Shown piece by piece: positions 18,149 to 39,209 of a stretch of DNA of 56,369 bases (position 1 is the stretch's first letter; each line of letters starts with the position of its first letter). The notes under the pieces are model-generated. The model saw only the letters and a program-made list of their open reading frames with translations. It had not been told where the DNA came from and did no database searches. The stretch is from assembly GCA_028708805.1 (NCBI GenBank), contig JAQVYC010000003.1:1-56369 (forward strand). Direction: 5' to 3'. Source of the DNA: Clostridia bacterium. GTDB lineage: Bacteria > Bacillota > Clostridia > Christensenellales > UBA1242. A program made the position numbers and the translations under genes.

Positions 18149-18309
18149 TACCTCTTTTCTTTTAAAGATATTTTTTCTTGCATATCTTTATCTTATCTTA
18201 CATTTTTGTTAACTCGTAATTAAATTCTTAATGCTGCGAACACATATAATTAAAAACTACTCGCCTTTTTAAAGCTTTTTTAAAAAAGTCTTTCTTCTAA
18301 AAATCGAAG

Positions 18310-23602: not shown

Positions 23603-24982
23603 ATGTTTGCATTAATTAATAAAAAAGATATTTATGGAGTTAAAGTGGAAAATATTTTAAAAACAATTAAAGAAAACAATTTAATATCTAAGGGGGATAT
23701 CATTGGCGTTGCCGTTAGTGGTGGCAGCGATTCTATGTGCTTATTGCATTATTTACATAGCCTATCTAGCGAAATGGATATTGAAATTGTTGTTATTCAT
23801 ATTGACCATGGCATTCGTTCGAATAGTTCAGAAGATGCCCGCTTTGTTCTTAATTTTTGCAAAAAAAGAATGATAAGGTCTTATAAGTTTAAAATTGATG
23901 TACCAAAACTAATTTTACAGAAAAAAATGTCATTAGAGCAGGCCGCCCGAGAAGCCCGTTATGGTGTTTTTGATGCTCTCATAAAAAAGGGTGTTGCAGA
24001 TAAAATTGCAATTGCTCACAATTCAAGGGACCAAGCCGAAACAATTTTAATTAATTTATTTCGTGGAACAGGTGTTGTAGGAGTTAGCGGTATGGATGTT
24101 ATTCGTGGCGCCTATATTCGCCCTATGTTAAACACTTCCAAAAAATCAATTTTCGAATATATAAGCAATAATGATATTCCGTTTGTTGAAGATGAAACGA
24201 ATAAAGATAATTCTTATTCTAGAAATCATATAAGAAATTTAATTCTTCCACTTGTTGAAGAAAAATGGCCCGATGCGGTAGATAAAATTGTAAACTTTGG
24301 CAGAGATTGCTATGAAGATAATGCTTACATATCTGGGCAAATTATAACTGATGCAATTATTTATGAAAATAAAACGGCAAAAATACCTCTTACCTATTTT
24401 TTATATCCAAATGCAATTGTTTCTAGAATTATTTTTAAAGCTCTTGGAAAAATTGATGTGAATAAAGACATTGACCGAGTTCATATCCAAATGATTAAAA
24501 ATCTTGCCCAGCATGGCGAAAATGGCAAAAAAATAAATTTGCCTTTAAAAATCTCTGTTTATAAAGAATATGATTATGTTACGATAACAAACCGCCAAAA
24601 AGATGAAGTTGATTTAAAAGTGCCTTTTAAGTCAGGAAGTTTTGATGTAGAAAATTTTGGAACGGTTACAATAAGGCGAGTAAAAGATTTTTTAAATGAT
24701 ACTTTAGGAGAAGGTGAACTGCTTGTTGACACTAAAAAAATACCTAAAACGGCAGAGTGGAGATTTAAACAGAATGGGGATGTTTTTCATAAATTCGGCA
24801 GTGGCACAAAAAAGCTTAAAGATTATTTTATAGACAAAAAAATTCCGTCAAGATTAAGAAATACAATTCCCGTTTTAGCTAATGAAAATGAAGTTCTTAT
24901 TATTGCTGGAATTGAAATTAGTGAAAATGTTAAAGTGGACCAAAACACAAAAACAGCCTCAAAAATTACCGTTATCAAATAA
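23603..24982 (+). CDS. tilS: tRNA(Ile)-lysidine synthase
   Basis: PP-loop GVAVSGGSDS, then the HIDHGIR block and a C-terminal TilS domain. The true start may be the GTG at 23645, which has a ggag SD. Confidence 0.9.
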   Translation: MFALINKKDIYGVKVENILKTIKENNLISKGDIIGVAVSGGSDSMCLLHYLHSLSSEMDIEIVVIHIDHGIRSNSSEDARFVLNFCKKRMIRSYKFKIDVPKLILQKKMSLEQAAREARYGVFDALIKKGVADKIAIAHNSRDQAETILINLFRGTGVVGVSGMDVIRGAYIRPMLNTSKKSIFEYISNNDIPFVEDETNKDNSYSRNHIRNLILPLVEEKWPDAVDKIVNFGRDCYEDNAYISGQIITDAIIYENKTAKIPLTYFLYPNAIVSRIIFKALGKIDVNKDIDRVHIQMIKNLAQHGENGKKINLPLKISVYKEYDYVTITNRQKDEVDLKVPFKSGSFDVENFGTVTIRRVKDFLNDTLGEGELLVDTKKIPKTAEWRFKQNGDVFHKFGSGTKKLKDYFIDKKIPSRLRNTIPVLANENEVLIIAGIEISENVKVDQNTKTASKITVIK

Positions 24983-25073
24983 AAAAATTAAGAAAATGTA
25001 CAAAATTCTAATATAAAAGGTATAAAATATTAGAAATCTATATACAAACTGGACTAAAATAGTTGTCTGTTGT

Positions 25074-25090
25074 TGTGGAAATGTGGATAA
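25074..25090. promoter_or_regulatory. DnaA-box doublet 1
   Basis: TGTGGAAA abuts TGTGGATAA. The second box is a perfect TTATCCACA on the complementary strand. Confidence 0.75.
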
Positions 25091-25177
25091 CTTCTTGTTT
25101 TTGGCATATTTTTAAAACAAATTGTTTAATTTTGAACAGAATTCATAAATATTAGTGAGAATGTATGAATATGCAGC

Positions 25178-25194
25178 TGTGGAAATGTGGATAA
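25178..25194. promoter_or_regulatory. DnaA-box doublet 2
   Basis: An identical 17-mer TGTGGAAATGTGGATAA lies 104 bp from doublet 1. The wider shared context is the 19-mer TGTGGAAATGTGGATAACT. Confidence 0.75.
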
Positions 25195-25450
25195 CTTTTT
25201 CAACACTGCTTTTTGCCTTGTTAATCAACCCTTTCTTCTATTTTAAAAAATTATCTCTTGCAAAGTTTTATAATTTAGGCTAATTTTTTGTTTATGTTTA
25301 TACGATAAGTTTTTGAAATATAGACAAAATAGAATTCTCGTCAAATCAAACCATACGTCTTATTTTAAAAAAAACAATAATTTAAAGTCTTTTTTAGCTT
25401 TTTGTTTATAAATCTTTAAAAAGCGAAACAATCAAAAATGTAAGTTATAT

Positions 25451-25479
25451 TTGACTTTTTTAGATACTTCACTTACAAT
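25451..25479 (+). promoter_or_regulatory. candidate sigma-A promoter for hisS
   Basis: TTGACT, a 17-nt spacer, then TACAAT, ~25 nt upstream of the hisS SD (aggag). Confidence 0.45.
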
Positions 25480-25503
25480 AATTAAAAATAACTAGGAGTT
25501 TTT

Positions 25504-26799
25504 ATGCAAAAAGCAAAGGCCAGAACACTTTCAGGCTTTATGGAATTATTACCTCAAAAACAAATTATCTTTAACCAAATGAAAGATAAAATTATATCTG
25601 TTTTTAAACTTAACGGGCTTGCACCTATGGATACGCCTGTTTTAGAATATAGCGATGTTTTATTGGCGAAAGCAGGTGGCGAAACTGAAAAACAAATTTA
25701 TCAGTTTAATAAAGGTAGCACAGATTTATGTATGCGTTTTGACCTTACTGTTCCTTTCGCTAAATATGTTTCACTTTATCAAAACGAATTGACATTTCCA
25801 TTCAGACGATATCAAGTTGGTAAGGTTTTTCGTGGAGAACGAGCTCAAAAAGGTCGGTTTAGAGAATTTTATCAATGTGATATAGATATTATTGATAATG
25901 AAAAGCTATCTCTTCACTCTGATGCTGAGTGTATTGATATTTTAAGTCAGGTTTATGACGCCTTGGAACAACCTATATTAATAAAAGTAAATAACCGTAA
26001 AATTATTAACGGTCTACTTGAAAATTTTAAATTAACAGAAAAAACAACCGAGATTTTAATTTTGCTAGATAAGAAAAGCAAACTTGATAAAGAATTGTTT
26101 TTAGCTGAATTTAATAAAATAACGCCTATGGCTTCCGAAATTATTGAAATTTTAAACAGCGACACTCCACAAAAGCTAGCAGAGTTTAATATAACAAATA
26201 AAACATTTTTGCAAGGCATAAGCGAAATTCAAACTATTTTTAAAATTTTGCAACTTTTAGAAGTAAAAAATGAAATAATTTTTGATTTATTTACTATTCG
26301 AGGACTAGCTTATTACACAGGCACTGTTTTTGAAGCCTTTTTGAAAAATATTCCTGAACAGTCTTCTGTTAGTGGTGGAGGGCGATACGATAACTTAACC
26401 GAAAGTTTTTCAAATAAAGGCTTTTATGGAGTTGGCATTAGTATAGGCTTAACGCGACTTTTTGATTTGTTAGATAAAAATAATTTGTTAGAATTTTCTA
26501 AAACAACCACAACAACGCTGGCACTTATTCCCTTAACCAATATCCAAGAATTAACGAATCATTGTTATGGTTTGTCTAAGCAATTAAAAAATAATGGAAT
26601 TAACACCGAAGTTTTATATTTTGAAAAAACTTTTAAAAATAAATTAAATTATGCCAATAAAAAGAAAATACCATTTATAATTGTTGTAGGAGATGACGAA
26701 ATTCAAAACGGTAGTTATTCTCTTAAAAATATGGAAACAGGCGAAACTGTAAACACTTCATTACAAGGTTTAATTGAATTGTTAGGAGGCAAAGCTTGA
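25504..26799 (+). CDS. hisS: histidine--tRNA ligase
   Basis: 431-aa class II aaRS with HisRS blocks MRFDLTVPFAKYV, FRGERAQKGRFREFYQCD and GGGRYDNL, plus a C-terminal anticodon-binding domain. Confidence 0.93.
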   Translation: MQKAKARTLSGFMELLPQKQIIFNQMKDKIISVFKLNGLAPMDTPVLEYSDVLLAKAGGETEKQIYQFNKGSTDLCMRFDLTVPFAKYVSLYQNELTFPFRRYQVGKVFRGERAQKGRFREFYQCDIDIIDNEKLSLHSDAECIDILSQVYDALEQPILIKVNNRKIINGLLENFKLTEKTTEILILLDKKSKLDKELFLAEFNKITPMASEIIEILNSDTPQKLAEFNITNKTFLQGISEIQTIFKILQLLEVKNEIIFDLFTIRGLAYYTGTVFEAFLKNIPEQSSVSGGGRYDNLTESFSNKGFYGVGISIGLTRLFDLLDKNNLLEFSKTTTTTLALIPLTNIQELTNHCYGLSKQLKNNGINTEVLYFEKTFKNKLNYANKKKIPFIIVVGDDEIQNGSYSLKNMETGETVNTSLQGLIELLGGKA

Positions 26800-28007
26800 A
26801 CAATAACATAAACCAAACACCTAATAAGCAAGAAATAAAAAAATCGCATAAACGAGTTTTTTATTCAAGCCCACTTCCGAAGAAAAAAAGCCCTAAACCA
26901 GAACATACGCAAAAATCGCAAAGTTCAGTTTTAGCTAATGCAAAACAAAATTTGCAAAAAAATATTTCACAAAATAAACAAGAATTAAAGACAAATATTT
27001 CACAAAATAACCAAGAACTAAAGACAAATATTTCACAAAATAAAAAACAGGCTCAGCGAGTTCCTTATGGAAAAACACAAAACTTGCCACAGGTTACACA
27101 GCCAATTCAAAAACCTCAAAATAAAACTGTTCAATTAATACAAGTTCCGCACAAACAAAACTTACCAAGCACACAACAAAATAAACAAGTTTCTCAATTA
27201 ACGCAACTTGCTAAAATCAAGCAATCTCAAATAAATCAAAATTTACAAAAACAAAATCTTAAAACTGAACAAAAATCACAACACAATCAAACTTCACAAA
27301 TTATTAAAAAATCTAATATTAAAAATTTTCAACCAAAACAACTTTTACAAGACAATCAAACTCAACTTAAATTAGATAATCAGGCTTTACAATCAAATAA
27401 ATCGCAAACAAAACAACTTACCGAACCGAAAAAAAACCTTCAAGTTGGTCTAAAAAAACAAAACAAACAAATCAATCAAGCCTCCCACCCCACTAAAACA
27501 ACACAAATAGTTAAGTCTGAGCAAGCCTCTCTTTTGGATATTTCAAGAAAATTAGACAACTTAAAAACCGACATTTCAAAAATTTCAGACAACTCAAAAA
27601 ATATATATACGAATTTTTTAAATGCAATTTCTCCTGGAATGAGCAAAGATGTACCACCTTTACTGCTTGCTTTTATTGGTGATGCCGTGCATACCTTGTT
27701 TGTGAGAACATTTTTTATAAAAAATGTGAATAGTCCTGTTGGTAAAAAGCATACTCAATGTTCTAGTTTTTGCCGTGCAAAAAGTCAGGCGGATGCCTTA
27801 GATTTTATATCTGAGTTTTTAAATGAAAACGAGCTAGATATTGCAAAGCGAGCTAGAAATTCTAAAAACCACAGCTCTTCGAAAAACACTGACCCGGAAG
27901 ATTACAGAAAAGCCACCAGTTTTGAAGCGGTTGTTGGACATCTATATATAACAAATCAAATCAATAAATTAGAATCGCTTTTAATGAAGTTTATGGAGAA
28001 AGAATGA
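26796..28007 (+). CDS. mrnC: mini-ribonuclease III with ~275-aa Q/K/N-rich N-terminal extension
   Basis: The C-terminal ~125 aa carry the Mini-III signature (LAFIGDAVHTLFVR ... RARNSKNHSSSKNTDPEDYRKATSFEAVVGHLY). The TTG start has a strong SD (GGAGG 5 nt upstream) and overlaps the hisS stop. About 275 stop-free codons precede the catalytic core. Confidence 0.75.
   Translation: MNNNINQTPNKQEIKKSHKRVFYSSPLPKKKSPKPEHTQKSQSSVLANAKQNLQKNISQNKQELKTNISQNNQELKTNISQNKKQAQRVPYGKTQNLPQVTQPIQKPQNKTVQLIQVPHKQNLPSTQQNKQVSQLTQLAKIKQSQINQNLQKQNLKTEQKSQHNQTSQIIKKSNIKNFQPKQLLQDNQTQLKLDNQALQSNKSQTKQLTEPKKNLQVGLKKQNKQINQASHPTKTTQIVKSEQASLLDISRKLDNLKTDISKISDNSKNIYTNFLNAISPGMSKDVPPLLLAFIGDAVHTLFVRTFFIKNVNSPVGKKHTQCSSFCRAKSQADALDFISEFLNENELDIAKRARNSKNHSSSKNTDPEDYRKATSFEAVVGHLYITNQINKLESLLMKFMEKE
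26961..27046 (+). repeat. 33-bp in-frame tandem repeat (about 2.6 units) inside the mrnC extension
   Basis: AATATTTCACAAAATAAACAAGAATTAAAGACA is repeated, encoding NISQNKQELKT / NISQNNQELKT / NISQNKK. Confidence 0.85.
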
Positions 28008-28729
28008 ATATTTATGGAAAAAATGCCATAGCCGAGGCTTTGGACAGTGTTACAATTAATAAACTTTTTATAGATAAGAATATGCCTTTCGACAAATATA
28101 ATCAAAAAATAATTGATGATGCTAAGCGAAAAAATGTTAAAGTGTATTTCGAGTCTAAAAATGTTTTAAGTCAAAAATGTGGAAGTGTAAAGCATCAAGG
28201 CTTTGTTGCGGAGATAACCGAATTTGTTTACAGTGAAACCGAAGATATTTTAAAAATTGCTGAGAGCAAAAATGAACAGCCTTTTATTTTGGTTTTAGAT
28301 GGCATTACCGACCCGCAAAATTTAGGGGCAATAATTAGAAGTGCTGAATGCTTTGGTGTGCATGGAATTATAATTCAAAAGGACCGAGCTTGTTCCATAA
28401 ATGAAACTGTTTATAAAACAAGTGCTGGGGCTATAAATAATATGTTAATTGCACGAGTTGTAAACCTAAACCGAGAAATTGAGTATCTGAAAAAGAACAA
28501 TGTTTGGATTTACGGCTTTGAACTAGGCGGAGAAGAATTATCTAAAACCAAGCTAGATGGAGCTTTGGCTTTGGTTATTGGTAGTGAAGGTAAAGGCATT
28601 CGTCAACTTGTAAAAGAAAATTGTGATTTTGTTGTCTCAATTCCAATGAAAGGGGCAATAAATTCCTTAAATGCTAGTGTTGCAACAGGTATTGCTCTTT
28701 ATGAAGTTACAAGACAAAAAGCATCTTAA
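28004..28729 (+). CDS. rlmB: 23S rRNA (guanosine-2'-O)-methyltransferase, SpoU/TrmH family
   Basis: 241-aa ORF with motifs DGITDPQNLGAIIRSAECFG, LVIGSEGKGIR and SLNASVATGIALYE. It overlaps the mrnC stop and is syntenic with Bacillus mrnC-yacO. Confidence 0.88.
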   Translation: MNIYGKNAIAEALDSVTINKLFIDKNMPFDKYNQKIIDDAKRKNVKVYFESKNVLSQKCGSVKHQGFVAEITEFVYSETEDILKIAESKNEQPFILVLDGITDPQNLGAIIRSAECFGVHGIIIQKDRACSINETVYKTSAGAINNMLIARVVNLNREIEYLKKNNVWIYGFELGGEELSKTKLDGALALVIGSEGKGIRQLVKENCDFVVSIPMKGAINSLNASVATGIALYEVTRQKAS

Positions 28730-28825
28730 ATTTTTAAAATTTTCTTCAAGTGAAATCAAGTTTCTTTAAACTGGCAAACTTGAAAGATTTAATCTTAAAA
28801 ACAAGATATATAAAATTCAAGCTAG

Positions 28826-29464
28826 GTGATAATGAATTTAGAAAAAGAAAAATTAAGTGATGAAGAAAACATCATAAGATATCAAAACGGCAATGAGAAT
28901 ATCATTGATTTTATCTTTTTTAAATATAAGAACTTAGTGCATAGTATTGCAGGCAAATATTATCTTAATGGTGCAGAGCCTGATGACTTATTACAAGAAG
29001 GAATGATTGGCTTATATAATGCGTGCAACAGTTTTAATTCATCTATGAATAAATCTTTTAAATCATTTGCTTATCTTTGTATTGAAAGACAAATTCAAAG
29101 TGCAGTAAAATCTGCAAACCGCCAAAAAAACATAGTTCTTAATAATGCATTATCACTTAACAAACAATTTGGATTAACACATCAAAAAGATGACGAGCAG
29201 GGTGAAGAAGAAACGGCAAAATCTCTTCCATCCCCCGACCCAACTCCCGAAGATAAAATAATTGAAGAAGAAACTTATCTTGAAAGATTAAAACAAATTC
29301 GGCAAAGCCTTTCTGATTATGAATTTAAAATTTTGAAGCATTACATAAAGGGTTATAAATATGAATATATTGCTGAATTAATTGACAGGGACTTTAAAAG
29401 TATTGACAATGCAATAACCAGAATTAAAACTAAGTTAAAGTTTTTGAAAAATTTAAAAAAATAA
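28826..29464 (+). CDS. sigH: RNA polymerase sigma factor SigH-like (sigma-70 family)
   Basis: Region 2 (DDLLQEGMIGLYNACNSFN...FKSFAYLCIERQI) and region 4 (YIAELIDRDFKSIDNAITRIKTKL) are colinear with Bacillus SigH. It sits in the conserved position after mrnC-rlmB. The start could instead be the ATG at 28832. Confidence 0.8.
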   Translation: MIMNLEKEKLSDEENIIRYQNGNENIIDFIFFKYKNLVHSIAGKYYLNGAEPDDLLQEGMIGLYNACNSFNSSMNKSFKSFAYLCIERQIQSAVKSANRQKNIVLNNALSLNKQFGLTHQKDDEQGEEETAKSLPSPDPTPEDKIIEEETYLERLKQIRQSLSDYEFKILKHYIKGYKYEYIAELIDRDFKSIDNAITRIKTKLKFLKNLKK

Positions 29465-29480
29465 AACAGACTATAACGAA

Positions 29481-29510
29481 ACGAAAATAACGCAATTTTT
29501 TCGTTTTTTT
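29481..29510 (+). terminator. intrinsic terminator after sigH
   Basis: Stem ACGAAAA/TTTTCGT with a 10-nt loop, followed by a T-run. Confidence 0.5.
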
Positions 29511-29603
29511 GTTTTCTTTTATACAATTTTATGAAACACTATTCATTTTTTTGTTAAAATATGTTAAACTATACTATAATAATTTTAGAAAAAGGAATTA
29601 TAT

Positions 29604-30401
29604 ATGGAAGGTAAAACTTATACAGCAAAAATGGGTATTGGGAGCTATGTATTAATTCTTCTTGTTATTGCGGGAGTTTCCGCATTAGCATTATTTCTTT
29701 TTTTGCCTAAAACAAATTATCAATCTGCATTTAATAATGTTTATAATATTCAAGATAGTTATTACCAAAAAAACATAAATAATAAAAATGTTGATGAATA
29801 CCTAAATATTATTTTAGACATAGATAATATTTCGACTTATCATTCAACTCAAATTAATTTATACAGCAAAATTTTAAGTATTTTAAACCTGTCTAATATA
29901 TATTGTATGAATGCCTTAATGGTGATTGACCCACAAGCCGAATACAATGATTTAGTTTTTAAGCAAAAAACTTCTTTGGATGAGTTTTTAAAAACAAAAA
30001 GCGAGCTTTCTACCCACCTTACTTTTAATATGAGAGAACTATTTAATAATCCTACTTTAAATCAAACAACAGTAAGTGAATATGTTGCTCCTTTTATAAA
30101 TAAATTTAAAAAGCTTGTTGAAGAATATGCAAGTTTCTATTATAAAACCGCACGCCTTATTAATGACGGAACTCTTCGTGGAATTGAAAACAATGAACTT
30201 ACCATAACGGCAAACCGTGAAATAAATTTAGCCATTAGTCGTATTTTAAATGTTTCTGATATCTATAATTGTTTTAACTATGTAAATTCTCTTCAAAGCC
30301 ACGCAACGATAATGTATGACGAAGATTTCTACCTTGAATATTACAACGGTGGTTATTCAGTTAACGATGTTATTAATATTTTAGGAGATATTTGCCCTTA
30401 A
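29604..30401 (+). CDS. membrane-anchored hypothetical protein
   Basis: 265-aa ORF with a single N-terminal TM helix (SYVLILLVIAGVSALALFLFL). The remainder is helical and N/Y-rich, with no recognised domain. Confidence 0.5.
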   Translation: MEGKTYTAKMGIGSYVLILLVIAGVSALALFLFLPKTNYQSAFNNVYNIQDSYYQKNINNKNVDEYLNIILDIDNISTYHSTQINLYSKILSILNLSNIYCMNALMVIDPQAEYNDLVFKQKTSLDEFLKTKSELSTHLTFNMRELFNNPTLNQTTVSEYVAPFINKFKKLVEEYASFYYKTARLINDGTLRGIENNELTITANREINLAISRILNVSDIYNCFNYVNSLQSHATIMYDEDFYLEYYNGGYSVNDVINILGDICP

Positions 30402-30429
30402 TAAAAAAACAAAAAGAAAAGGATACTCA

Positions 30430-31350
30430 ATGAAAAAAATATTTTTATCAATTTTAGTTTGTATGCTTTGTTTCACAACTGCTTGTGGTTGCTCAACTAA
30501 TGAATATTGGTCGGAAACAAAATTAGAGGTTTCTGAGTTTTTAAATTCATTTGAATATGAAGATTTAATTAATGGAAATCTTTCTTATAGTTCAAGTATA
30601 GATAGTAAAATCAATTCTTCTGACCAAGAATATAATGTTTTAAATGCGTATTCAAATATTTTATCATCCTGTTTTGTTACCGCAAAGAATTTTATTTATG
30701 CTTTTGAATATACCCCTGTGAATATAAAGGCGGCGGGACAATATTATAATGCTTTAACTCAAAATATAAATCAATTTAAATTACACGCAACAATTTTTTT
30801 AAATGCAAAAAACGATTATGTGCAAGCAGTTTATCAAACTGACTTAAACAATGCAATTGCATTAAGTAAATTAAAGGTTTATAAAAAAGAATTTTATAAT
30901 TTTATTTTAACAGCTAATGAATTTAATAAAACTTTTTCACAAGCACTTATAAGAGTTTATGGAAACTTTACAGAAATATCAGAAGATGTCTCAAATTCTG
31001 CTAAGGCGGTGGCAACTTCTTTTAGCGAATTAACAGACTTGTATATAACATATGCCCTTAAAGAATATGGCGGGATTCATTCAGCGTATACATTCTTTTA
31101 TTATGATTTAATTAACTTAAAAAACAATATAAATTCGGCATATCTTAATAATTCAGCTTTTAATAATTGGTTAACATTTTATGAAACATTTCAGGTTGAA
31201 AAAAACACATTCTTACATTCACTTAATCAAATTGACTTAACCGCCCTTAATATTACAAATTTAACATCAATAGTTTATTTAGGAAAGGTTAATAGATTTG
31301 TTGACACTAATGCTTCGCTTTTTATAAATAAAACTCTTTCATTGTTATAA
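30430..31350 (+). CDS. putative lipoprotein, unknown function
   Basis: 306-aa ORF whose signal peptide ends in the lipobox FTTAC. No domain recognised. Confidence 0.55.
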   Translation: MKKIFLSILVCMLCFTTACGCSTNEYWSETKLEVSEFLNSFEYEDLINGNLSYSSSIDSKINSSDQEYNVLNAYSNILSSCFVTAKNFIYAFEYTPVNIKAAGQYYNALTQNINQFKLHATIFLNAKNDYVQAVYQTDLNNAIALSKLKVYKKEFYNFILTANEFNKTFSQALIRVYGNFTEISEDVSNSAKAVATSFSELTDLYITYALKEYGGIHSAYTFFYYDLINLKNNINSAYLNNSAFNNWLTFYETFQVEKNTFLHSLNQIDLTALNITNLTSIVYLGKVNRFVDTNASLFINKTLSLL

Positions 31351-31459: not shown

Positions 31460-32155
31460 TTATTTTTCTCTAATGGTCGTTTTTTTGCCTCTAAAAAAAC
31501 TATATAAAATCAGAAAAATAAAAACGCATACAATCATTAATGTTATAGAAATAATTGTTCGTGTGCTTACACCGTCTGAAGTTATGTTTGAAGTTGAAAT
31601 ATAATAGGTTACAACTTCATCATTGTGTAAAAAACTTATTTTACAATATTGCTTATCAATATCATAACCGTTTAAAACTTTAACTCGGGTTTCTTTAAAT
31701 AAAACAATATCTGAAACTTCTGCATAGCCTTCTAAACTATAAACTTTACTTTCGTGAGTTACAATAGCATTTGTGTCTAAATAAATTTTGGGTGATTTTA
31801 TATTTATATCTAAAACATATGCTATTAATATGTATCCAATATTATCATCGAAGCTTATTTTATAAAAATTATTTTCAATTACTTGAACTAGAAAAATTTC
31901 ACCGTATTGTGCTTCATATAAAACACTCGAATTAATATCTGCTTCGGCATATACATTTGCCTTGTTTGTTATAACTTTAATTTGCTCTGGCTCATTGTTT
32001 TGTGTGCCAAAAACAATACTGTTAAAACAATCACTAGTTGCGTAAATATTTAATGGCTTTGTTGTAATTTGTAATATGTTAAAGCAAGTTAATAATATAA
32101 ATATTATAAAAAACAAAAACCCAAAATTAATTTTTAAAATTTTAATCATTTTCAT
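31460..32155 (-). CDS. membrane protein with two SH3b-like repeats
   Basis: 231-aa ORF with N-terminal and C-terminal TM helices. It has two segments with an SH3b-like pattern (ANVYAEADINSSVLYEAQYGEIFLV...NFYKISF...GYI). Confidence 0.45.
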   Translation of the reverse strand: MKMIKILKINFGFLFFIIFILLTCFNILQITTKPLNIYATSDCFNSIVFGTQNNEPEQIKVITNKANVYAEADINSSVLYEAQYGEIFLVQVIENNFYKISFDDNIGYILIAYVLDINIKSPKIYLDTNAIVTHESKVYSLEGYAEVSDIVLFKETRVKVLNGYDIDKQYCKISFLHNDEVVTYYISTSNITSDGVSTRTIISITLMIVCVFIFLILYSFFRGKKTTIREK

Positions 32156-32226
32156 ATTTCCATTTTAACAAATATATTTAAATTGTCAATTTTAGATATT
32201 GTTTTTAAGAAGTAAAGTTTTATCTT

Positions 32227-33318
32227 TTAAATATTTTCATGGCGAACTGTACCATTTTCAACTTTGAAATAATGTAAATTTTTATCTTTTGGAAAGTCTG
32301 TGCCTGTAATAAATGTTTGTGCCTTCACACAAAATTTTAATAATTTTTCCCGCCTTTTAGAATCTAGTTCACTCATAACATCATCTAATAATAAAATTGG
32401 CATATCTAAGGTTTCCTGATACATTATTTCAAGTTCGGCAAGTTTTAAAGATAATGCAACCGTTCTTTGTTGTCCCTGCGAGCCATATAACCGAATATCA
32501 ATATTGTTCACAATTATTTTTATATCATCTCTGTGTGGACCTATTGTTGTAAAACCTAGTTTGAAATCTTTTTCGAAATTCTTTTCTAATTCTTTGCTAA
32601 ATTTATTTTTAATATCTTCTAAGTCTGATTCTTTAAGACCTGTATATTCTAATTTTAATTCTTCTTTTTCAGAAGTTAAATATTTATGAACCTTTATTGC
32701 ATAAGGAGAAAGATTTTTAATAAACTCTTGCCTATATTTAATTATTTTACTTCCCGTGTCTATAAGTTGAGCATTCCAAATTTCAATTGTTTCTTTTATA
32801 TCTTTTTTATCGGCTAGCGTTTTTAAAAGTTTGTTCCTGTTTAATAAAACTTTTTCGTATCTACTAATTAAATAAAAATATTGTTTCGAAATTTGTGAAA
32901 TATGAATATCCATAAATCTCCGACGGTCTTCCGGTCGTTCTTTTATTAATTTTAATTCATCGGGCGAGAAATAAATAGCATTGAACTCTCCCATAAGTTC
33001 ACTAATTTTTTTAATTGAAATCTTATTAATATTTATTGTTTTTTTTGTATTTTTTGAAAAATACACAGAAATTTTGGATTTTTTGTACTTTTTTTTGATT
33101 TCTAGGTTGATTTTCGCAAAATCTTCACCAAATTTAATTACTTCTTTTTCTCTGCTTGCTCTTAAACTTTTACCTATACTGCAAAAAAAAATAGCTTCTA
33201 AAAGATTGGTTTTGCCTTCTGCATTTTTCCCTTGTATAATATTTATACCATCAAAAAAGTTTATATCTAACAATGAATAATTTCTATAATTTTGAAGTTG
33301 TATTTTATTTATTTTCAT
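32227..33318 (-). CDS. recF: DNA replication and repair protein RecF
   Basis: Walker A GKNAEGKTNLLEAI, ABC signature GSQGQQRT and Walker B ILLLDDVMSELD. Confidence 0.92.
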   Translation of the reverse strand: MKINKIQLQNYRNYSLLDINFFDGINIIQGKNAEGKTNLLEAIFFCSIGKSLRASREKEVIKFGEDFAKINLEIKKKYKKSKISVYFSKNTKKTININKISIKKISELMGEFNAIYFSPDELKLIKERPEDRRRFMDIHISQISKQYFYLISRYEKVLLNRNKLLKTLADKKDIKETIEIWNAQLIDTGSKIIKYRQEFIKNLSPYAIKVHKYLTSEKEELKLEYTGLKESDLEDIKNKFSKELEKNFEKDFKLGFTTIGPHRDDIKIIVNNIDIRLYGSQGQQRTVALSLKLAELEIMYQETLDMPILLLDDVMSELDSKRREKLLKFCVKAQTFITGTDFPKDKNLHYFKVENGTVRHENI

Positions 33319-33583
33319 TACACTCTACTTTTTTAAGTTGGTTTTTATTTTTAATATTTGTTTTTTATTTAATAATTTAATTTTAGCAAAATTTAATATT
33401 TTTGTAAACAAAAATCAAATTTATGTTATTTTGTATTTTATTTAAATTTAATTTTATTTATTTTATTTTTATTATAAATTTATTTTTTTAATAAAATATT
33501 AAAAATCTTTAAATAAGGCACTGCGAAAATTATCACATTAACTCATCAATCTTTATGACATTTTATTTTTAAGTCTGTAATTA

Positions 33584-33612
33584 TTGAATTTAAAAATAAG
33601 TTATGTTATAAT
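33584..33612 (+). promoter_or_regulatory. candidate sigma-A promoter for dnaA (extended -10)
   Basis: TTGAAT, a 17-nt spacer, then TATAAT preceded by TGT. It lies ~70 nt upstream of the dnaA ATG. Confidence 0.5.
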
Positions 33613-33683
33613 AATTTTATTATGGTATACCAGTTTTGTATTACACTTAAAATTTAATTGGTTATTATTAAAAGGGATTATAA

Positions 33684-35039
33684 ATGCAAGAATTAAATTC
33701 ACATTGGGCTAAGGTTTTATCTAAATTAGAACTAAAAGTAAGCACTGTTTCTTTTGAGCTATGGATAAAAACAATTGAACCTATTGGTTATAAAGACAAT
33801 AAAACATTAATTTTAGTTGCTTCTTCTAAGACAGCTAAAAATCAACTTATAAAAAACCATTCTGAGCAATTAAAAGAAACAATCGCTCAGGTATTTGGAG
33901 ATGGAATTGATTTTCAAATTTTAGATGAGAATGAAAAAGATGAATATTTGAAAAATAACCCTTCCTTAGAATCAACCGATATAAATAATAAAGAAGACCG
34001 ACCCGTTTTTAATAATAAATATACCTTTGAAAACTTTGTTGTTGGAAAAAGCAATCAATTTGTTTATGCAGCTGCAAGAGCTGTGAGTGAAAACCCAGGC
34101 AAAAGGTTTAATCCGCTTTTTATTTATGGTGGTGTAGGACTTGGAAAAACTCATTTGCTTCATGCTATTGGAAATTATATATCTCAATTTTTTCCTAAAC
34201 TAAAAATCAAATATGTAACTTGTGAAAAATTTACAAACGATTACATAGAATCAATTCTTTCTAAACGCGAAGAAAGTAAGGTTGAGTTTAGAGAACTTTA
34301 CAGAAATTTAGATGTGTTAATGGTAGATGATATTCAATTTTTGAGTAAAAAAGATTCAACCCAAGAAGAATTTTTTCATACCTTTAATGATTTATATCAA
34401 AACAATAAACAAATAATCTTATCTTCTGACCGTCCTCCAAAAGAAATTGCAACACTTGCCAAGCGATTAGAATCTCGTTTTGCTTGTGGTTTAATTCAAG
34501 ACATTCAAACTCCTGATTTTGAAACAAGAATTGCAATTTTAAGAAAAAAGGCACAGCAAGAACGATATTTTATTGATGATGAAGTTATAGAATTTATTGC
34601 TGAAAAAATAGATACTAATATTCGTGAGATGGAAGGTTTTCTTTCAAAAGTACATTTTTTTGCCACTCTATTAGGTAAAAAAACGGTAGGTATTGAAGAG
34701 GCCCGTGAAGCTTTTAAAGAGCAGTTAGATAACACAAGAGAAAATATAACAATTGATTTAATTATGGACAAGGTTTGTGATTATTTTGATATTAGTAAAG
34801 CTGATATAGTTGGAAAAAAGCGAAGCAAAGAAATTGTTGAGCCTAGAATGATTGCAATTTATCTTGTTAGTGAACTTATGGATGTGCCTTTAATTTCAAT
34901 TGGTAAGCATTTTGGCGGGCGCGACCATACCACAATAATTCATGCAAGAGATAAAATTACTGATCAAGTTAAATTTAAACAAACCACAAAAAATATTATA
35001 TCCGAATTAAAATCAATAATTACCAATCAAACAAATTAA
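33684..35039 (+). CDS. dnaA: chromosomal replication initiator protein DnaA
   Basis: AAA+ Walker A GGVGLGKTHLLHAIGN, Walker B LMVDDIQF, and the C-terminal DNA-binding block GKHFGGRDHTTIIHARDKI. Confidence 0.97.
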   Translation: MQELNSHWAKVLSKLELKVSTVSFELWIKTIEPIGYKDNKTLILVASSKTAKNQLIKNHSEQLKETIAQVFGDGIDFQILDENEKDEYLKNNPSLESTDINNKEDRPVFNNKYTFENFVVGKSNQFVYAAARAVSENPGKRFNPLFIYGGVGLGKTHLLHAIGNYISQFFPKLKIKYVTCEKFTNDYIESILSKREESKVEFRELYRNLDVLMVDDIQFLSKKDSTQEEFFHTFNDLYQNNKQIILSSDRPPKEIATLAKRLESRFACGLIQDIQTPDFETRIAILRKKAQQERYFIDDEVIEFIAEKIDTNIREMEGFLSKVHFFATLLGKKTVGIEEAREAFKEQLDNTRENITIDLIMDKVCDYFDISKADIVGKKRSKEIVEPRMIAIYLVSELMDVPLISIGKHFGGRDHTTIIHARDKITDQVKFKQTTKNIISELKSIITNQTN

Positions 35040-35214
35040 TTTTTGATTTACTAAAAATAGAAAAGTATTTATTGTTTTTCTGATTTTTATTTACCAGAAA
35101 AACTATATGATAAAATACGATTTCTTGTTTTTTGTTTTTTATATAAAGTATTGTTTTTTTTAAATAATTCAACCTTCTAAGTATCAATATTTTTCTATTC
35201 ACTTTAACCATAAC

Positions 35215-35261
35215 TGTGGAAATGTTTATAATAAATTTTATTTACTCACAAGTTATCCACT
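35215..35261. promoter_or_regulatory. DnaA-box cluster in dnaA-dnaN spacer
   Basis: TGTGGAAA + TGTTTATAA (a mutated copy of the 25-kb doublet), TTACTCACA (2 mismatches) and TTATCCACT (1 mismatch to TTATCCACA). Confidence 0.6.
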
Positions 35262-35358
35262 TTTTTCAACACTACATATTGACCGTAAAATTTTTAATGT
35301 TACGAGATTTATGTTATAATATAAAAATAAAAATACTATATATGGTAACCCTAAAAAA

Positions 35359-35367
35359 GTATCCACT
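35359..35367. promoter_or_regulatory. DnaA-box-like site next to AT-rich tract
   Basis: GTATCCACT (2 mismatches to consensus). It is followed 11 nt later by GACTACTAATAC and then pure A/T sequence. Confidence 0.35.
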
Positions 35368-35390
35368 TTTAAACACAGACTACTAATACG

Positions 35391-35440
35391 GTTATTATTA
35401 AATAATAATAAATATAATATATATATTAGTGCTGTCGTTC
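35391..35440. other. candidate DNA unwinding element
   Basis: GTTATTATTAAATAATAATAAATATAATATATATATTAGTG is a nearly G/C-free stretch immediately downstream of the box-like site. Confidence 0.35.
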
Positions 35441-35835
35441 ATTGAATTTTTTTAATATTTTGTTAGGCTTAATTTTAAAATCTATTAAATAAAACTTTTT
35501 AAAAACATTTTTCATTATTTTATAAACTTAAAAATAAATCAAATTAAAAAAAATCCATAAAATTCTAAAATTCATAAATAGAAAATATTTTTTGTTTACA
35601 CTGTTTGCTCCTTTGCTGTTATATTTTAAATTATTAAAGCAAATAAAAAAACAAATCTGAAAAGAAAAATTTGTATAAATTTGACTATTTCAAAAAAATA
35701 TATTATTATATCTTAATGATAAATTATATAAGAGATTTTAAAATTTATTTAAGCGCGTTTAATTTTAAAATTTTCTTTTAAAGTTTTAAAAATATTTTTC
35801 TATTAAAAATAAAATCAAAATTTAAGGAGAGAAAA

Positions 35836-36951
35836 ATGCAAGTTGTATGTGAAGGTTTAGATTTATGCGATGCTGTTATCACGGTGTCCCGTGCTATTGG
35901 AGCAAGAACAACGAACCCTATTTTAGAAGGAATAAAAATTGTTGCCGATGAAGATGTTTTAACTTTAAGTGCAACCGACTTAGAATTATCTATTGAAAAG
36001 AAAATTAAAGCAGAAGTAAAAGTTGAAGGTGAAGTTGTTGTTCCTGGTAAGTTTTTCAGTGAGCTTGTTAAAAAACTCACTAACGAAAAAATTGAATTAA
36101 AACTTAATGAAAACAATCTTATGAAAATTAAATATACAGATAGTGAAACAGTTCTTCAATGTTTTCCTGTATACGAATTTCCTAGTTTTCAAAAATTAGA
36201 TAGCACAGATTTTTTTGGAGTGAGTAAAAAGAATTTCAAAAACTTAATATCTAAAACAACTTTCTCTGTTGCTCTTGATGATGCTCGACCTATCTTGAAA
36301 GGTTGTTTATTAGAAATTGAAGATGGTAAAGTTAAAGCTGTTTCGTTAGATGGTTATAGGCTTGCTTTATCTGTTCAAAAAATAAAAGAAAGTAATCTTT
36401 CAGTATCAGTTGTAGTTCCTGCTAAAAGTTTAAATGAAATTTCTAAGCTTCTAGATGATGAAGATGAAATTATTAATATATACTTACAAAGAAATTTTAT
36501 GATGGTTGACTTAAATGATTGCATAATAACAACTCGATTACTTGAAGGGGACTTTATTAATTATAAGCAAATCATAGGCAATGAATTTGATACAAAAATT
36601 ACTGTTAATAAAAAACAACTTGAAGATGCTTTAGAAAGAGCTTCCTTGCTATCCAAAATAGGTCAAAACAATTTTGTGCAGTTTGATTTAAGAGATAAAT
36701 TATTAAGCATTACTTCTAGAAGTGAAATAGGAAACGCAAGAGAAAATTTAAACATTGTGTTTGGCGGTAAGGAATTAGTGATTGCTTTTAATGCAAGATA
36801 TTTTATGGATGCGTTAAAAGTTATTCAAGATGAGTTTATAAACATAAAATTTAACTCTGCACAAAATCCGTGTGTCATAACACCATTTGAAGGCGAAGAA
36901 GAAAGATATCTGTTTTTGATTTTACCGCTAAGACCAATGGGGGCAATGTAA
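35836..36951 (+). CDS. dnaN: DNA polymerase III subunit beta (sliding clamp)
   Basis: 371-aa ORF with SD aaggaga and a three-domain clamp-length protein. Blocks recalled from DnaN: PILEGIKI...LTLSATDLELSI and FNARYFMDALK. It is in the conserved position after dnaA. Confidence 0.95.
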   Translation: MQVVCEGLDLCDAVITVSRAIGARTTNPILEGIKIVADEDVLTLSATDLELSIEKKIKAEVKVEGEVVVPGKFFSELVKKLTNEKIELKLNENNLMKIKYTDSETVLQCFPVYEFPSFQKLDSTDFFGVSKKNFKNLISKTTFSVALDDARPILKGCLLEIEDGKVKAVSLDGYRLALSVQKIKESNLSVSVVVPAKSLNEISKLLDDEDEIINIYLQRNFMMVDLNDCIITTRLLEGDFINYKQIIGNEFDTKITVNKKQLEDALERASLLSKIGQNNFVQFDLRDKLLSITSRSEIGNARENLNIVFGGKELVIAFNARYFMDALKVIQDEFINIKFNSAQNPCVITPFEGEEERYLFLILPLRPMGAM

Positions 36952-36977
36952 ATTTCAACTAATAAAAAATAATATTT

Positions 36978-37055
36978 AATCCTTTCTTTTCTTGTGCTTA
37001 TATGTTAGTCAGTTTTAAAAAGTTGTTTAACTTTTTTAAAGAGAGGATTTTTTTA
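36978..37055 (+). terminator. composite hairpin/terminator after dnaN
   Basis: Outer arms AATCCTTTCTTT / AAAGAGAGGATT (1 mismatch) enclose an inner AAAAGTT/AACTTTT hairpin, followed by a T-run. Confidence 0.35.
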
Positions 37056-37107
37056 TATTTATATAAATCTTTTCTTAAAAAGAAAATTCGACAGTTTTAA
37101 AATGTTC

Positions 37108-37136
37108 TTGACTTTAAATAGTTTATAATTTATAAT
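37108..37136 (+). promoter_or_regulatory. candidate sigma-A promoter for rpmH operon
   Basis: TTGACT, a 17-nt spacer, then TATAAT, ~30 nt upstream of the rpmH start. Confidence 0.55.
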
Positions 37137-37167
37137 TGCACAGTTAATATTTAAATCAGGAGGCATT

Positions 37168-37299
37168 ATGAAAAGGACTTACCAGCCAAAGAAACGACAA
37201 AAAAACAAAGTTCACGGATTTAGAAAAAGAATGAAAACACAATCCGGAAGAAATGTTTTAAAAAGGCGAAGAAACCGAGGAAGAAAAGAATTGATATAG
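37168..37299 (+). CDS. rpmH: 50S ribosomal protein L34
   Basis: Not on the ORF track because it is only 43 aa: [45 protein letters not shown] aggagg lies 5 nt upstream of the ATG. It is in the canonical position before rnpA. Confidence 0.92.
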
Positions 37300-37421
37300 T
37301 TGTAAAATTTTTATTAAAATTTTATATTTTTTTTTAAAAAAGATTGAAGTTTAATAATTATATTTACAGTATTAAAATTTTAAATTTAAAAAAATTATAA
37401 AAGCGTAAATTAAGGTGAAGT

Positions 37422-37757
37422 ATGATTAAAAAAGAACACCGCTTAACTAAAAAGAGGCATTATCAATTTATTTACAGAAAAGGAAAAGCGGAACATTCAA
37501 AATTTTTAACTTTGGTTTATGCTAGAACAAAAATTCAGCCATTTAAAGTAGGTTTTTCAATTTCTAAAAAGATTGGGAAAAGTGTTGTTAGAAACAAAGT
37601 GAAAAGGCGAATGCGAGAAAGTTTTAATATTTTAGAAAATATATTTAATATTAATTATAATTATGTGTTTGTTGCAAAAAAAGGAATTGAAAATCTTAAT
37701 TTCTGGGAAATAAAAACAGATATGGAAAGACTGATAAAAAGAATTAATAATAAATAA
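37422..37757 (+). CDS. rnpA: ribonuclease P protein component
   Basis: 111-aa basic protein with the RNR-type block SVVRNKVKRRMRE, positioned after rpmH. Confidence 0.88.
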   Translation: MIKKEHRLTKKRHYQFIYRKGKAEHSKFLTLVYARTKIQPFKVGFSISKKIGKSVVRNKVKRRMRESFNILENIFNINYNYVFVAKKGIENLNFWEIKTDMERLIKRINNK

Positions 37758-37884
37758 AAAATTATTAAAAAAAGACACTAAATAATATCAAGTTAAGTAA
37801 AAATTATTTTAATTAAATAAATTAAAATATAAAAACAATTATAAAAGAACTAATTAAGGGAAATAAAAATAATAGGAATAATTA

Positions 37885-38151
37885 ATGATTAAAATAATTA
37901 CATTGCCATTAAATTATGTTTGTATAGGATTAGTTTGGCTTTATAAAATTTTAATCTCACCCCTATTACCTAGGGTTTGCCCATATACACCAACATGCTC
38001 AAAGTATATGATTAACGCAATAAAAGAATTTGGTTTTGCAAAAGGGATAGTATTAGGCTCAGGCAGATTATTAAGATGCTCTCCAAAACATAAAGGATGT
38101 TACGACCCAATCCCGCTTAATTTAAAAGGAGATTTGAAGTGGATTTTATAA
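37885..38151 (+). CDS. yidD: membrane protein insertion efficiency factor YidD
   Basis: LYKILISPLLPRVCPYTPTCSKYMINAIKEFG...RLLRCSPKHKGCYDPIP is the conserved YidD cysteine pattern. Confidence 0.88.
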   Translation: MIKIITLPLNYVCIGLVWLYKILISPLLPRVCPYTPTCSKYMINAIKEFGFAKGIVLGSGRLLRCSPKHKGCYDPIPLNLKGDLKWIL

Positions 38152-39209
38152 ATTTACTTGTTATAGCGCCAACAGGTTTTTGGCAGACACTTATAGAGTT
38201 TTTTAATACATTTATTCTAGATTATGCTTGGGCAATTATTGTTTTAACAATTTGTATTAAAATTGTATTAACTCCACTAGACTTTTTGAATAAAAAAGTT
38301 TCAAGAGATAATATGAAGATGCAAACAGAGCTTGCTCCGCAACTTCAAAAACTACAAAAACAATATGCAAACGATAAAATGAAATTAAATCAAAAATCAC
38401 AAGAGTTATATAAAACTAGTGGATATAATTTAACAGGCTCTTGTATTACAATGTTGATAAATTTTGCTTTAACATTGATTATTTTTATAACTTTGTTTGC
38501 AGCACTTCACGCAGGTTCTAGTTATAAAATAGAACAACAGTATTTACTTTTAAGACAAGAATATGAAATAGTATATACCGAATCAACAAATAACGGCGAT
38601 GAAGAAGCCGTAGCAACACAAACCGCACAAGATGCAGTGTTAGAATTATACGACAATACAAAAAATAATTTCTTATGGGTGCAAAATATTTGGGTTGCAG
38701 ATAATTTCTGGACAAGTGCAATTTTACCGTTTGATAGTTATATTACATCAGTTGGTAATAATATAAAACTAGATATTGATAGCGAAAATGTTGAATATAG
38801 CAAATTAACAGATGAAGAAAAACTTGCCTTTGAAGCAGAATATAATAAGGTAATGCAAATTTTAATTCAAGATAGAGGCGGTGTTAATGGTTATTTAATA
38901 ACAGCGGTTGTAGCAATACTAACCTGCTTCTTATCACAATATTTAATGCAAAGAAGAACATCATCAAAGAATTCAAACAGTCAACCAGCAACAACTCAAC
39001 AAACAAACAAAATTCTAATTATTGTTTTACCTATAGTTATGGGTGTCTTTACATTATTTTATAATGCTATTTTCGGTCTTTACATTATATCTAGTCAAAT
39101 TGTTTCACTTGCAACTTTTCCAATTATAGATAAACTTTTAGATAAATACTATATAAAGAAAGACAAAGAGAAACAGCAAAAAATCAAAATGGATTATAGT
39201 CGAAAATAA
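38139..39209 (+). CDS. yidC: membrane protein insertase YidC
   Basis: GTG start overlapping the yidD end. YidC/Oxa1 core: IKIVLTPLDFLNKKVSRDNMKMQTELAPQLQKLQKQY...ELYKTSGYNLTGSC, plus C-terminal TM helices and a basic tail. Confidence 0.88.
   Translation: MDFINLLVIAPTGFWQTLIEFFNTFILDYAWAIIVLTICIKIVLTPLDFLNKKVSRDNMKMQTELAPQLQKLQKQYANDKMKLNQKSQELYKTSGYNLTGSCITMLINFALTLIIFITLFAALHAGSSYKIEQQYLLLRQEYEIVYTESTNNGDEEAVATQTAQDAVLELYDNTKNNFLWVQNIWVADNFWTSAILPFDSYITSVGNNIKLDIDSENVEYSKLTDEEKLAFEAEYNKVMQILIQDRGGVNGYLITAVVAILTCFLSQYLMQRRTSSKNSNSQPATTQQTNKILIIVLPIVMGVFTLFYNAIFGLYIISSQIVSLATFPIIDKLLDKYYIKKDKEKQQKIKMDYSRK

Follow-up and report, generated by a model that had tools for sequence, protein, structure and literature searches.

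Where does replication begin in a reduced gut Clostridia genome whose only perfect DnaA boxes near dnaA lie 10 kb away from that gene, and what would those boxes do? The question is raised by a window of 56,369 nucleotides (contig JAQVYC010000003.1 of assembly GCA_028708805.1, positions 1 to 56,369 of the forward strand) from a Clostridia bacterium of the GTDB lineage Christensenellales; UBA1242, in which the 521-bp spacer between tilS (23603-24982) and hisS (25504-26799) holds a compact module of DnaA boxes. We propose, with a probability of roughly two in three, that this tilS-hisS module is a family-conserved DnaA-box cluster (DBC) outside the origin, a datA-like sink or regulator of DnaA, and not an origin. 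The genome, called G000 below, is a metagenome-assembled genome (MAG) of 43 contigs, with 30% GC and an assembly of 926 kb, and the genomes of its same-family relatives are ~1 Mb. All genomes compared are MAGs, and the relatives are non-independent samples. Features are on the plus strand of the window unless stated otherwise.

The 19-mer TGTGGAAATGTGGATAACT is present in exactly two copies on the plus strand, at 25074..25092 and 25178..25196, 104 bp apart from start to start (~10 helical turns), which matches what an earlier reading of the window without database searches (the sequence-only reading) had described for this spacer. With up to three mismatches allowed, two matches were found, compared with 0.01 expected from shuffles. 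Each copy is an exact match containing a double DnaA box, in which the weak box TGTGGAAAT, with two mismatches to the DnaA-box consensus, runs into the perfect box TGTGGATAA, followed by CT; their starts are 8 bp apart, as they share one base, so that the imperfect and perfect boxes noticed earlier in each copy overlap. No other perfect TTATCCACA box occurs in the 56-kb window, in agreement with the earlier remark that no others could be found near dnaA. Assembly-wide there are 15 such boxes against ~11.5 expected by our own base-composition estimate, and therefore no genome-wide enrichment.

Between the two double boxes lie 85 bp of 23.5% GC (25093..25177), with the near-palindrome TTTTGAACAG at 25130-25139 and the AT-rich units TTCATAAATATT at 25142-25153 and AATGTATGAATATGCA at 25160-25175. 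A weak inverted DnaA box with two mismatches, TTTTCAACA, follows at 25197..25205, inside the sequence CTTTTTCAACACT that is common to the dnaA-dnaN spacer; as had been noticed before, CTTTTT(T)CAACACT stands at both 25195-25207 and 35260-35273, with the weak inverted box within it. In all, the module has five boxes with no more than two mismatches in 132 bp, two of them perfect, and it is the best-scoring cluster of the G000 assembly.

Comparison of the spacer with related genomes, which the sequence-only reading had suggested, shows that the module recurs. The 17-mer formed by the two boxes was found with up to two mismatches in all 12 of the family relatives first searched, in which the reversed control gave none, and six of them (G001, G002, G005, G006, G008, and G010) have a same-strand pair 102-106 bp apart. 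Further family members space the pair by 106 bp (G015), 95 bp (G013), and 81 bp (G017). A strict exact pattern, GTGGATAAC-N70-99-GTGGATAAC, was matched in 68 of 151 family genomes and 32 of 58 genera, usually once per genome, and the reversed pattern used as control gave two matches in total.

The internal layout is conserved as well. In the family alignment, the first double box is followed by weak inverted boxes of the form TTATRCAMA (TTTTCAACAC follows it in G017 too), and tandem AT-rich units of ~19 bp (AAATTTATAAWTATTCAT) adjoin the second double box. Of 74 family modules, 31 contain the motif TTATAAWTA, versus 3.8 in shuffles, and within the genus the palindrome TTTGnnCAAA is found in the modules of six relatives (background, 0.058 per kb).

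The neighboring genes vary. The order tilS/module/hisS is shared by G000, G005, and G006, and the module of G001 also stands just upstream of hisS. In G003 it precedes a Mini-III-type RNase gene and rlmB, a Mini-III-type gene lies downstream in G007 and G010 too, and in G008 the next gene is methionyl-tRNA-ligase-like (identified by eye from its translation). The module of G017 has a vanW gene on one side and an ABC exporter operon on the other, and a small unannotated open reading frame (ORF) is also among the genes seen downstream of modules. The distance to dnaA ranges from 10 kb in G000 and 14.5 kb in G002 to 116 kb in G017 and 142 kb in G015, and it is at least 61 kb in G005, where the two loci are on separate contigs of 65 and 134 kb. 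The module is thus a stand-alone, conserved element, independent of dnaA and of its flanking genes, and since its architecture is conserved across changing neighbors it appears to be selected for itself.

Of the three functions offered by the sequence-only reading, a titrating or regulatory cluster fits such a conserved, stand-alone element found 10-142 kb from dnaA; a split origin and a relocated origin are disfavored by the position of the predicted unwinding system and by strand skew, as follows. The unwinding rule described for Bacillus subtilis, the basal unwinding system (BUS), calls for a DnaA box with up to two mismatches and an optional tandem second box with up to four (PMC8287927), and for at least three DnaA-trios, 3'-NAN-5' with the consensus 3'-GAT-5', separated from the box by a spacer of no more than 16 nt (PMC8287927; PMC6669920). 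In relatives, the dnaA-dnaN spacer carries the same 17-mer in inverted orientation, with DnaA-trios (CTACTAATAC...) and an AT-only tract immediately after it. The arrangement, (A)GTTATCCACATTTCCACA, ~4 nt, CTA CTA ATA CTA... and an AT-rich tract, was found in G001, G002, G005, G010, G013, G014, G015, G016, and G030, and within the genus a GCGCGCG run comes after the AT-rich tract. For example, the unwinding site reads AAGTTATCCACATTTCCACA TCAC CTACTAATACTACTG TTTTAAAATAATATTTAAATAATATTAAG in G002 and CTTGTCCACATTTCCACA AACA CTACTAATACTAATACTAAAATAATATTTAATATATTATATAATAA in G005. This arrangement conforms to the BUS definition (PMC8287927) and bears a close resemblance to the trio sequence of Clostridioides difficile oriC2, CACCTACTACTATTACTACTA (PMC7561715). 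Judged from these alignments, the 17-mer is the family's predicted tandem DnaA-box pair, that of the origin.

The corresponding spacer of G000 has 796 bp between dnaA (33684..35039; TIGR00362, E = 4.8e-150) and dnaN (35836..36951; TIGR00663, E = 1e-87). Its predicted unwinding system (35359..35428) consists of the box GTATCCACT, with two mismatches, TTTAAACA, CAGA, the DnaA-trios CTA CTA ATA at 35380-35388 after a 12-nt spacer, and, past a 3-nt gap, a 37-bp A/T-only tract at 35392-35428. Upstream of it, 35204..35271 makes up the other half of the putative oriC, with the decayed double box TGTGGAAATGTTTATAA at 35215-35231 and then the inverted boxes TTACTCACA, TTATCCACT, and TTTTCAACA. The mutated copy of the 17-mer reported earlier at this place does differ from the module copies by two mismatches; since the same box pair belongs to a family-conserved dnaA-dnaN layout, it would be a component of oriC. 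Double box and inverted boxes are laid out in this way in G005, G010, G013, G014, G015, and G016 also.

Thus 35204-35428 combines box, spacer, trios, AT tract, and a position between dnaA and dnaN, in a layout shared by 10 relatives. A genome-wide BUS-like scan of G000 gave three matches, among which 35359-35428 has the richest A/T tail (37/40) and alone lies between dnaA and dnaN. Replication most likely starts in the dnaA-dnaN spacer, at this predicted site. The module was held to the same rules and has the boxes but neither trios, a DNA unwinding element (DUE), nor a skew switch. No GAT-type (CTA) trios were found beside either of its double boxes: to the left of the second copy, the sequence of the reverse strand is ...CCACAGCTGC ATA TTC ATA CAT, with three NTN steps and no CTA trio, and left of the first copy no trio steps were found. 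The longest A/T-only run in the whole tilS-hisS spacer is 16 bp, and hence there is no DUE-like tract in it.

The sequence-only reading had also suggested that one of the two loci was copied from the other. A recent copy is not supported, as both loci are present separately in distant family members; the shared sequence would instead reflect the family's DnaA-box grammar, AGTTATCCACATTTCCACA with weak boxes such as TTTTCAACA.

In relatives, the module lies apart from the skew switch, unlike oriC. On contig C5 of G017 (858,737 bp), skew is positive over 1-462 kb, negative over 462-742 kb, and positive over 742-859 kb, and the sole large origin-type switch, at 741,829, falls in the dnaN/dnaA spacer (dnaA begins at 741,884). 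No switch is seen at the module, which lies at 625.3 kb inside the 280-kb negative run. The skew minimum of G015, at 18,250, is near dnaN-dnaA (19.8-22.5 kb), and there is no switch at the module (163 kb), across which skew is positive. Skew is positive over the whole 113-kb contig of G013, module included, again with no switch there. In the same-genus contigs of G005 and G001, raw skew tracks local gene orientation and changes sign several times. Skew, to which the sequence-only reading had looked for a decision, therefore turns at dnaA in G017 and G015; in G000 the raw minimum, at 21.8 kb, is not in the dnaA-dnaN spacer, and with a second dip near 33 kb the raw picture is ambiguous.

To split the transcription and replication components in G000, skew at third codon positions (GC3 skew) was used. 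It is +0.123 for undisputed leading-strand genes (n = 2260), -0.010 for lagging-strand genes (n = 584), and -0.060 for the plus-strand block from hisS to the gene at 30430 (n = 385), which is lagging-like (p = 0.001 versus leading genes, p = 0.47 versus lagging genes). An origin at 35.4 kb is preferred over one at 25.1 kb by a log-likelihood ratio of 4.55 nats. The test is supportive, not decisive, for the 35.4-kb origin.

This block belongs to a one-strand run, tilS - module - hisS - Mini-III-type RNase (mrnC-like) - rlmB - sigma factor - two unknown genes (23603..31350, plus), which is head-on to a fork coming from a dnaA-dnaN origin. Synteny of the whole run, down to the two unknown genes, extends to G005 (G005:C27:26316-35530), where it forms a plus-strand island amid minus-strand genes. 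As its orientation is the same there, far from dnaA, the head-on arrangement would be an old conserved state and not the trace of an origin at 25.1 kb.

Several observations weigh against placing the origin at dnaA-dnaN and the module outside it. In G000, the raw cumulative GC skew minimum and the gene-strand switch at 23.4 kb (the minus-strand genes left of tilS extend to 23357) are both closer to the module than to dnaA. The two minus-strand genes beside dnaA (31460-33318), which include recF (32227-33318), have a GC3 skew of -0.094 (n = 106) and are a misfit as leading-strand genes under a 35.4-kb origin. The boxes of the putative origin in G000 are decayed, with two mismatches to the family double box in the upstream half and four at the unwinding site, and the perfect copies are at the module. 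Further, the 600 bp upstream of dnaA hold zero or one box in 17 of the 18 family members checked, G000 included (the recF-dnaA spacer, 33319-33683, has no DnaA box at up to two mismatches), compared with 11 in the sister-family genome G019. The family seems to have lost or displaced its oriC1 cluster, and a displaced oriC1 is conceivable on that account. The AT-rich repeats of other genera consist almost wholly of A/T and adjoin the second double box in the geometry of an unwinding system, so that local DnaA-driven opening at the module is possible. Finally, the replichores of G017 look strongly asymmetric; its skew pattern implies either true asymmetry or MAG misassembly, the latter being possible as all genomes used are MAGs.

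With these points taken into account, the extra-origin cluster still accounts best for the module in our view. Two co-oriented copies of the origin's tandem box pair (AGTTATCCACA/TTTCCACA), ~10 helical turns apart, would serve as anchors that bracket weak boxes and AT-rich repeats of ~19 bp. DnaA could dock on both strong anchors, on the same face of the helix, and would probably oligomerize over the weaker sites between them. With neither GAT-type trios nor an A/T-only tract, the module would hold DnaA without firing replication, acting as a sink or a regulator of DnaA availability, and it may alter transcription of the downstream gene, in G000 the hisS-mrnC-rlmB-sigma block. What the sequences show is the anatomy of the module, its conservation in the family, its independence of dnaA and of the flanking genes, and where skew switches in relatives; DnaA binding, oligomerization, and a titrating or regulatory effect at the module are what we infer.

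Non-origin DnaA-box clusters are already known in Firmicutes. Bacillus subtilis has six DBCs outside oriC, mostly origin-proximal, which restrain initiation (their deletion leads to early initiation) and regulate neighbors such as sda, ywlC, and yydA, and in each Bacillus species they stand upstream of different genes (PMC3245932). Similarly, the module is an intergenic, non-coding DnaA-box cluster outside oriC in a Firmicute, is origin-proximal in G000, and is conserved in relatives upstream of differing genes. By analogy, its roles may be restraint of initiation by DnaA capture and control of local transcription. Unlike the B. subtilis DBCs, it has a fixed architecture of two identical box pairs with AT repeats and has only ~5 boxes.

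The module also resembles Escherichia coli datA and DARS1/2 in being a short non-coding locus with few boxes of the high-affinity type and a conserved element between them, apart from oriC and at a flexible position relative to it; it has no sequence homology to them. datA promotes IHF-dependent hydrolysis of DnaA-ATP, and DARS promotes nucleotide exchange. To our knowledge, neither IHF, Hda, nor SeqA is known from Firmicutes, Clostridia included. With the BUS at oriC2 (incC) of B. subtilis and C. difficile, the module shares the double box, which is the pair that precedes the trios in the family's dnaA-dnaN spacer, and its double box followed by inverted weak boxes recalls the left half of the family oriC. 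It differs from the oriC2 BUS in lacking GAT-type trios and, in G000, an A/T-only DUE, and its double boxes are direct repeats whereas those of oriC are inverted.

Might the module serve only as an operator through which DnaA regulates transcription of the gene or operon downstream, without any part in replication control? A co-oriented gene begins 30-400 bp downstream in ~9 of 11 aligned modules, a TTGACT promoter directly follows the second double box in G005 and G006, and B. subtilis DnaA controls sda, ywlC, yydA, and dnaA from such clusters (PMC3245932). This function overlaps with that of a DBC. As the sole function it seems rather unlikely, given that the internal architecture is kept while the downstream gene changes and that G017 has no co-oriented gene downstream of the module. 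Moreover, the consensus scan finds no promoter-like site inside the module, and the probable hisS promoter of G000 that it does find, TTGACT-17-TACAAT (25451..25479), is clear of the boxes, beginning 255 bp past the second double box.

A different idea is that the module is an origin-derived pseudo-origin at which two BUS-type box pairs anchor a DnaA-ATP filament over the AT repeats, which in most genera adjoin the second box pair as an unwinding element would, with datA- or DARS-like catalysis or with the missing oriC1 function supplied in trans. We regard this as unlikely. If true, it would be the first defined element of such kind in Clostridia.

Doubtful, too, is the possibility that the module is the displaced oriC1-type half of a bipartite origin, looping via DnaA over 10 kb to the unwinding site in the dnaA-dnaN spacer. 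The scarcity of boxes upstream of dnaA would find its explanation here, and both oriC1 and oriC2 are required for in vitro melting in C. difficile (PMC7561715). A distal DnaA box of B. subtilis acts by a loop that tolerates changes of position and orientation and shows helical phasing (PMC6669920), and the first half of the module, a double box with inverted weak boxes, follows the grammar of the oriC left half. The longest looping distance tested in B. subtilis is 462 bp, however (PMC6669920), and the 116-kb and 142-kb gaps of G017 and G015, like that of at least 61 kb in G005, are too large for an obligatory partnership in cis. The dnaA-dnaN spacer also holds distal boxes of its own at 35204-35271, and the clusters of a bipartite origin are split only by dnaA, whereas in G000 the two loci are 10 kb and nine genes apart.

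That the module is a relocated or second replication origin, with the dnaA-dnaN site in decay, is very improbable. The strand switch and raw skew minimum of G000 point that way, as do the window's only perfect boxes and their degenerate counterparts at dnaA-dnaN. The second copy formally satisfies a loose BUS rule (three NAN trios no more than 16 bp from a box), but we estimate that chance would satisfy this rule in about half of AT-rich flanks of this kind in DNA of 30% GC. Against a relocated origin stand the lack of GAT-type trios and of an A/T-only tract, the GC3 preference for 35.4 kb, the head-on island of G005, and the absence of a skew switch at the module in G017, G015, and G013. That the repeat arose by chance, or is a dispersed element with no link to DnaA, can be dismissed as negligible, as nothing but the AT-rich background speaks for this reading and it is at odds with the 0.01 matches expected from shuffles, with 68 of 151 family genomes versus two control matches, and with the identity to the origin box pair.

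Three points are particular to this case: the module anchors are identical to the BUS box pair of the predicted origin, the two-anchor, AT-repeat architecture is fixed over at least 32 genera, and the best predicted DnaA sites of G000 lie outside an origin whose boxes seem to have decayed. The origin of a reduced-genome, uncultured gut Clostridia lineage would be placed in the dnaA-dnaN spacer, away from the perfect boxes, and automatic origin callers guided by raw skew together with perfect DnaA boxes are liable to be misled here. As a putative member of the poorly understood non-origin DnaA-box clusters of Firmicutes, the module would be a well-defined and widely conserved addition, and its fixed design offers a compact substrate for studying how clusters hold or modify DnaA.

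Other candidate features of the spacer were tried and rejected. By-eye -35/-10 candidates within the module, in which the consensus scan gave no promoter, differ between genomes. A T-box or other RNA leader before hisS found no Rfam match except a sub-threshold MicC overlapping the hisS start. A small ORF from ATGTATGAATATGCA would encode 43 aa in G000 (by-eye translation), and its frame is broken in G001 (10 aa). Spo0A boxes between the double boxes are no general feature, since only 3 of 74 modules contain a perfect TGTCGAA. A common dispersed repeat, raised by the sequence-only reading as a way in which its proposal could fail, was also rejected: with up to four mismatches the 17-mer has 65 genome matches versus 50 for the reversed control, and with up to two mismatches it is confined to the two module copies, the dnaA-dnaN copy, and one CRISPR spacer.

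That spacer, TAGTTATGTGGAAATGTTGATAAAGGAGAAAGTA, belongs to a CRISPR array at positions 1-270 of contig C43 of G000, outside the window, with the repeat GTCGCTCCCCATACGCGGGGGCGTGGATTGAAAT. It holds the double DnaA box with one mismatch, directly 5' of a ribosome-binding-site-like AGGAG. From this spacer, a mobile element targeted by the G000 host seems to carry the same putative docking site; no protospacer was found among viral contigs searched for exact matches.

Gene order around dnaA (32227-39209) is atypical for a Firmicute, with recF on the minus strand followed by dnaA, dnaN, rpmH, rnpA, and yidC, all plus. The recF-dnaA spacer contains a 73-bp A/T-only run at 33434-33506. In relatives, the orientations of recF and dnaN with respect to dnaA differ, e.g., dnaN(-)/dnaA(+) in G017 and dnaA(-)/dnaN(+) in G012, which points to repeated inversions at the origin. 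In G012, whose dnaA (C5:6306-7634) is flanked by only one box on each side, a perfect double box, TTATCCACATTTCCACA, is found 31 kb away at G012:C5:38253 (locus L175:6253), with an AT-rich tract after it and more boxes ~100 bp upstream. The origin of G012 may be separated from dnaA.

A variant of the module has its two double boxes 21 bp apart, i.e., two helical turns. It was seen at G003:C11:1099/1120, G004:C57:8/29, and G006:C92:3066/3087, and the copy in G003 sits at the tilS-side position of the module.

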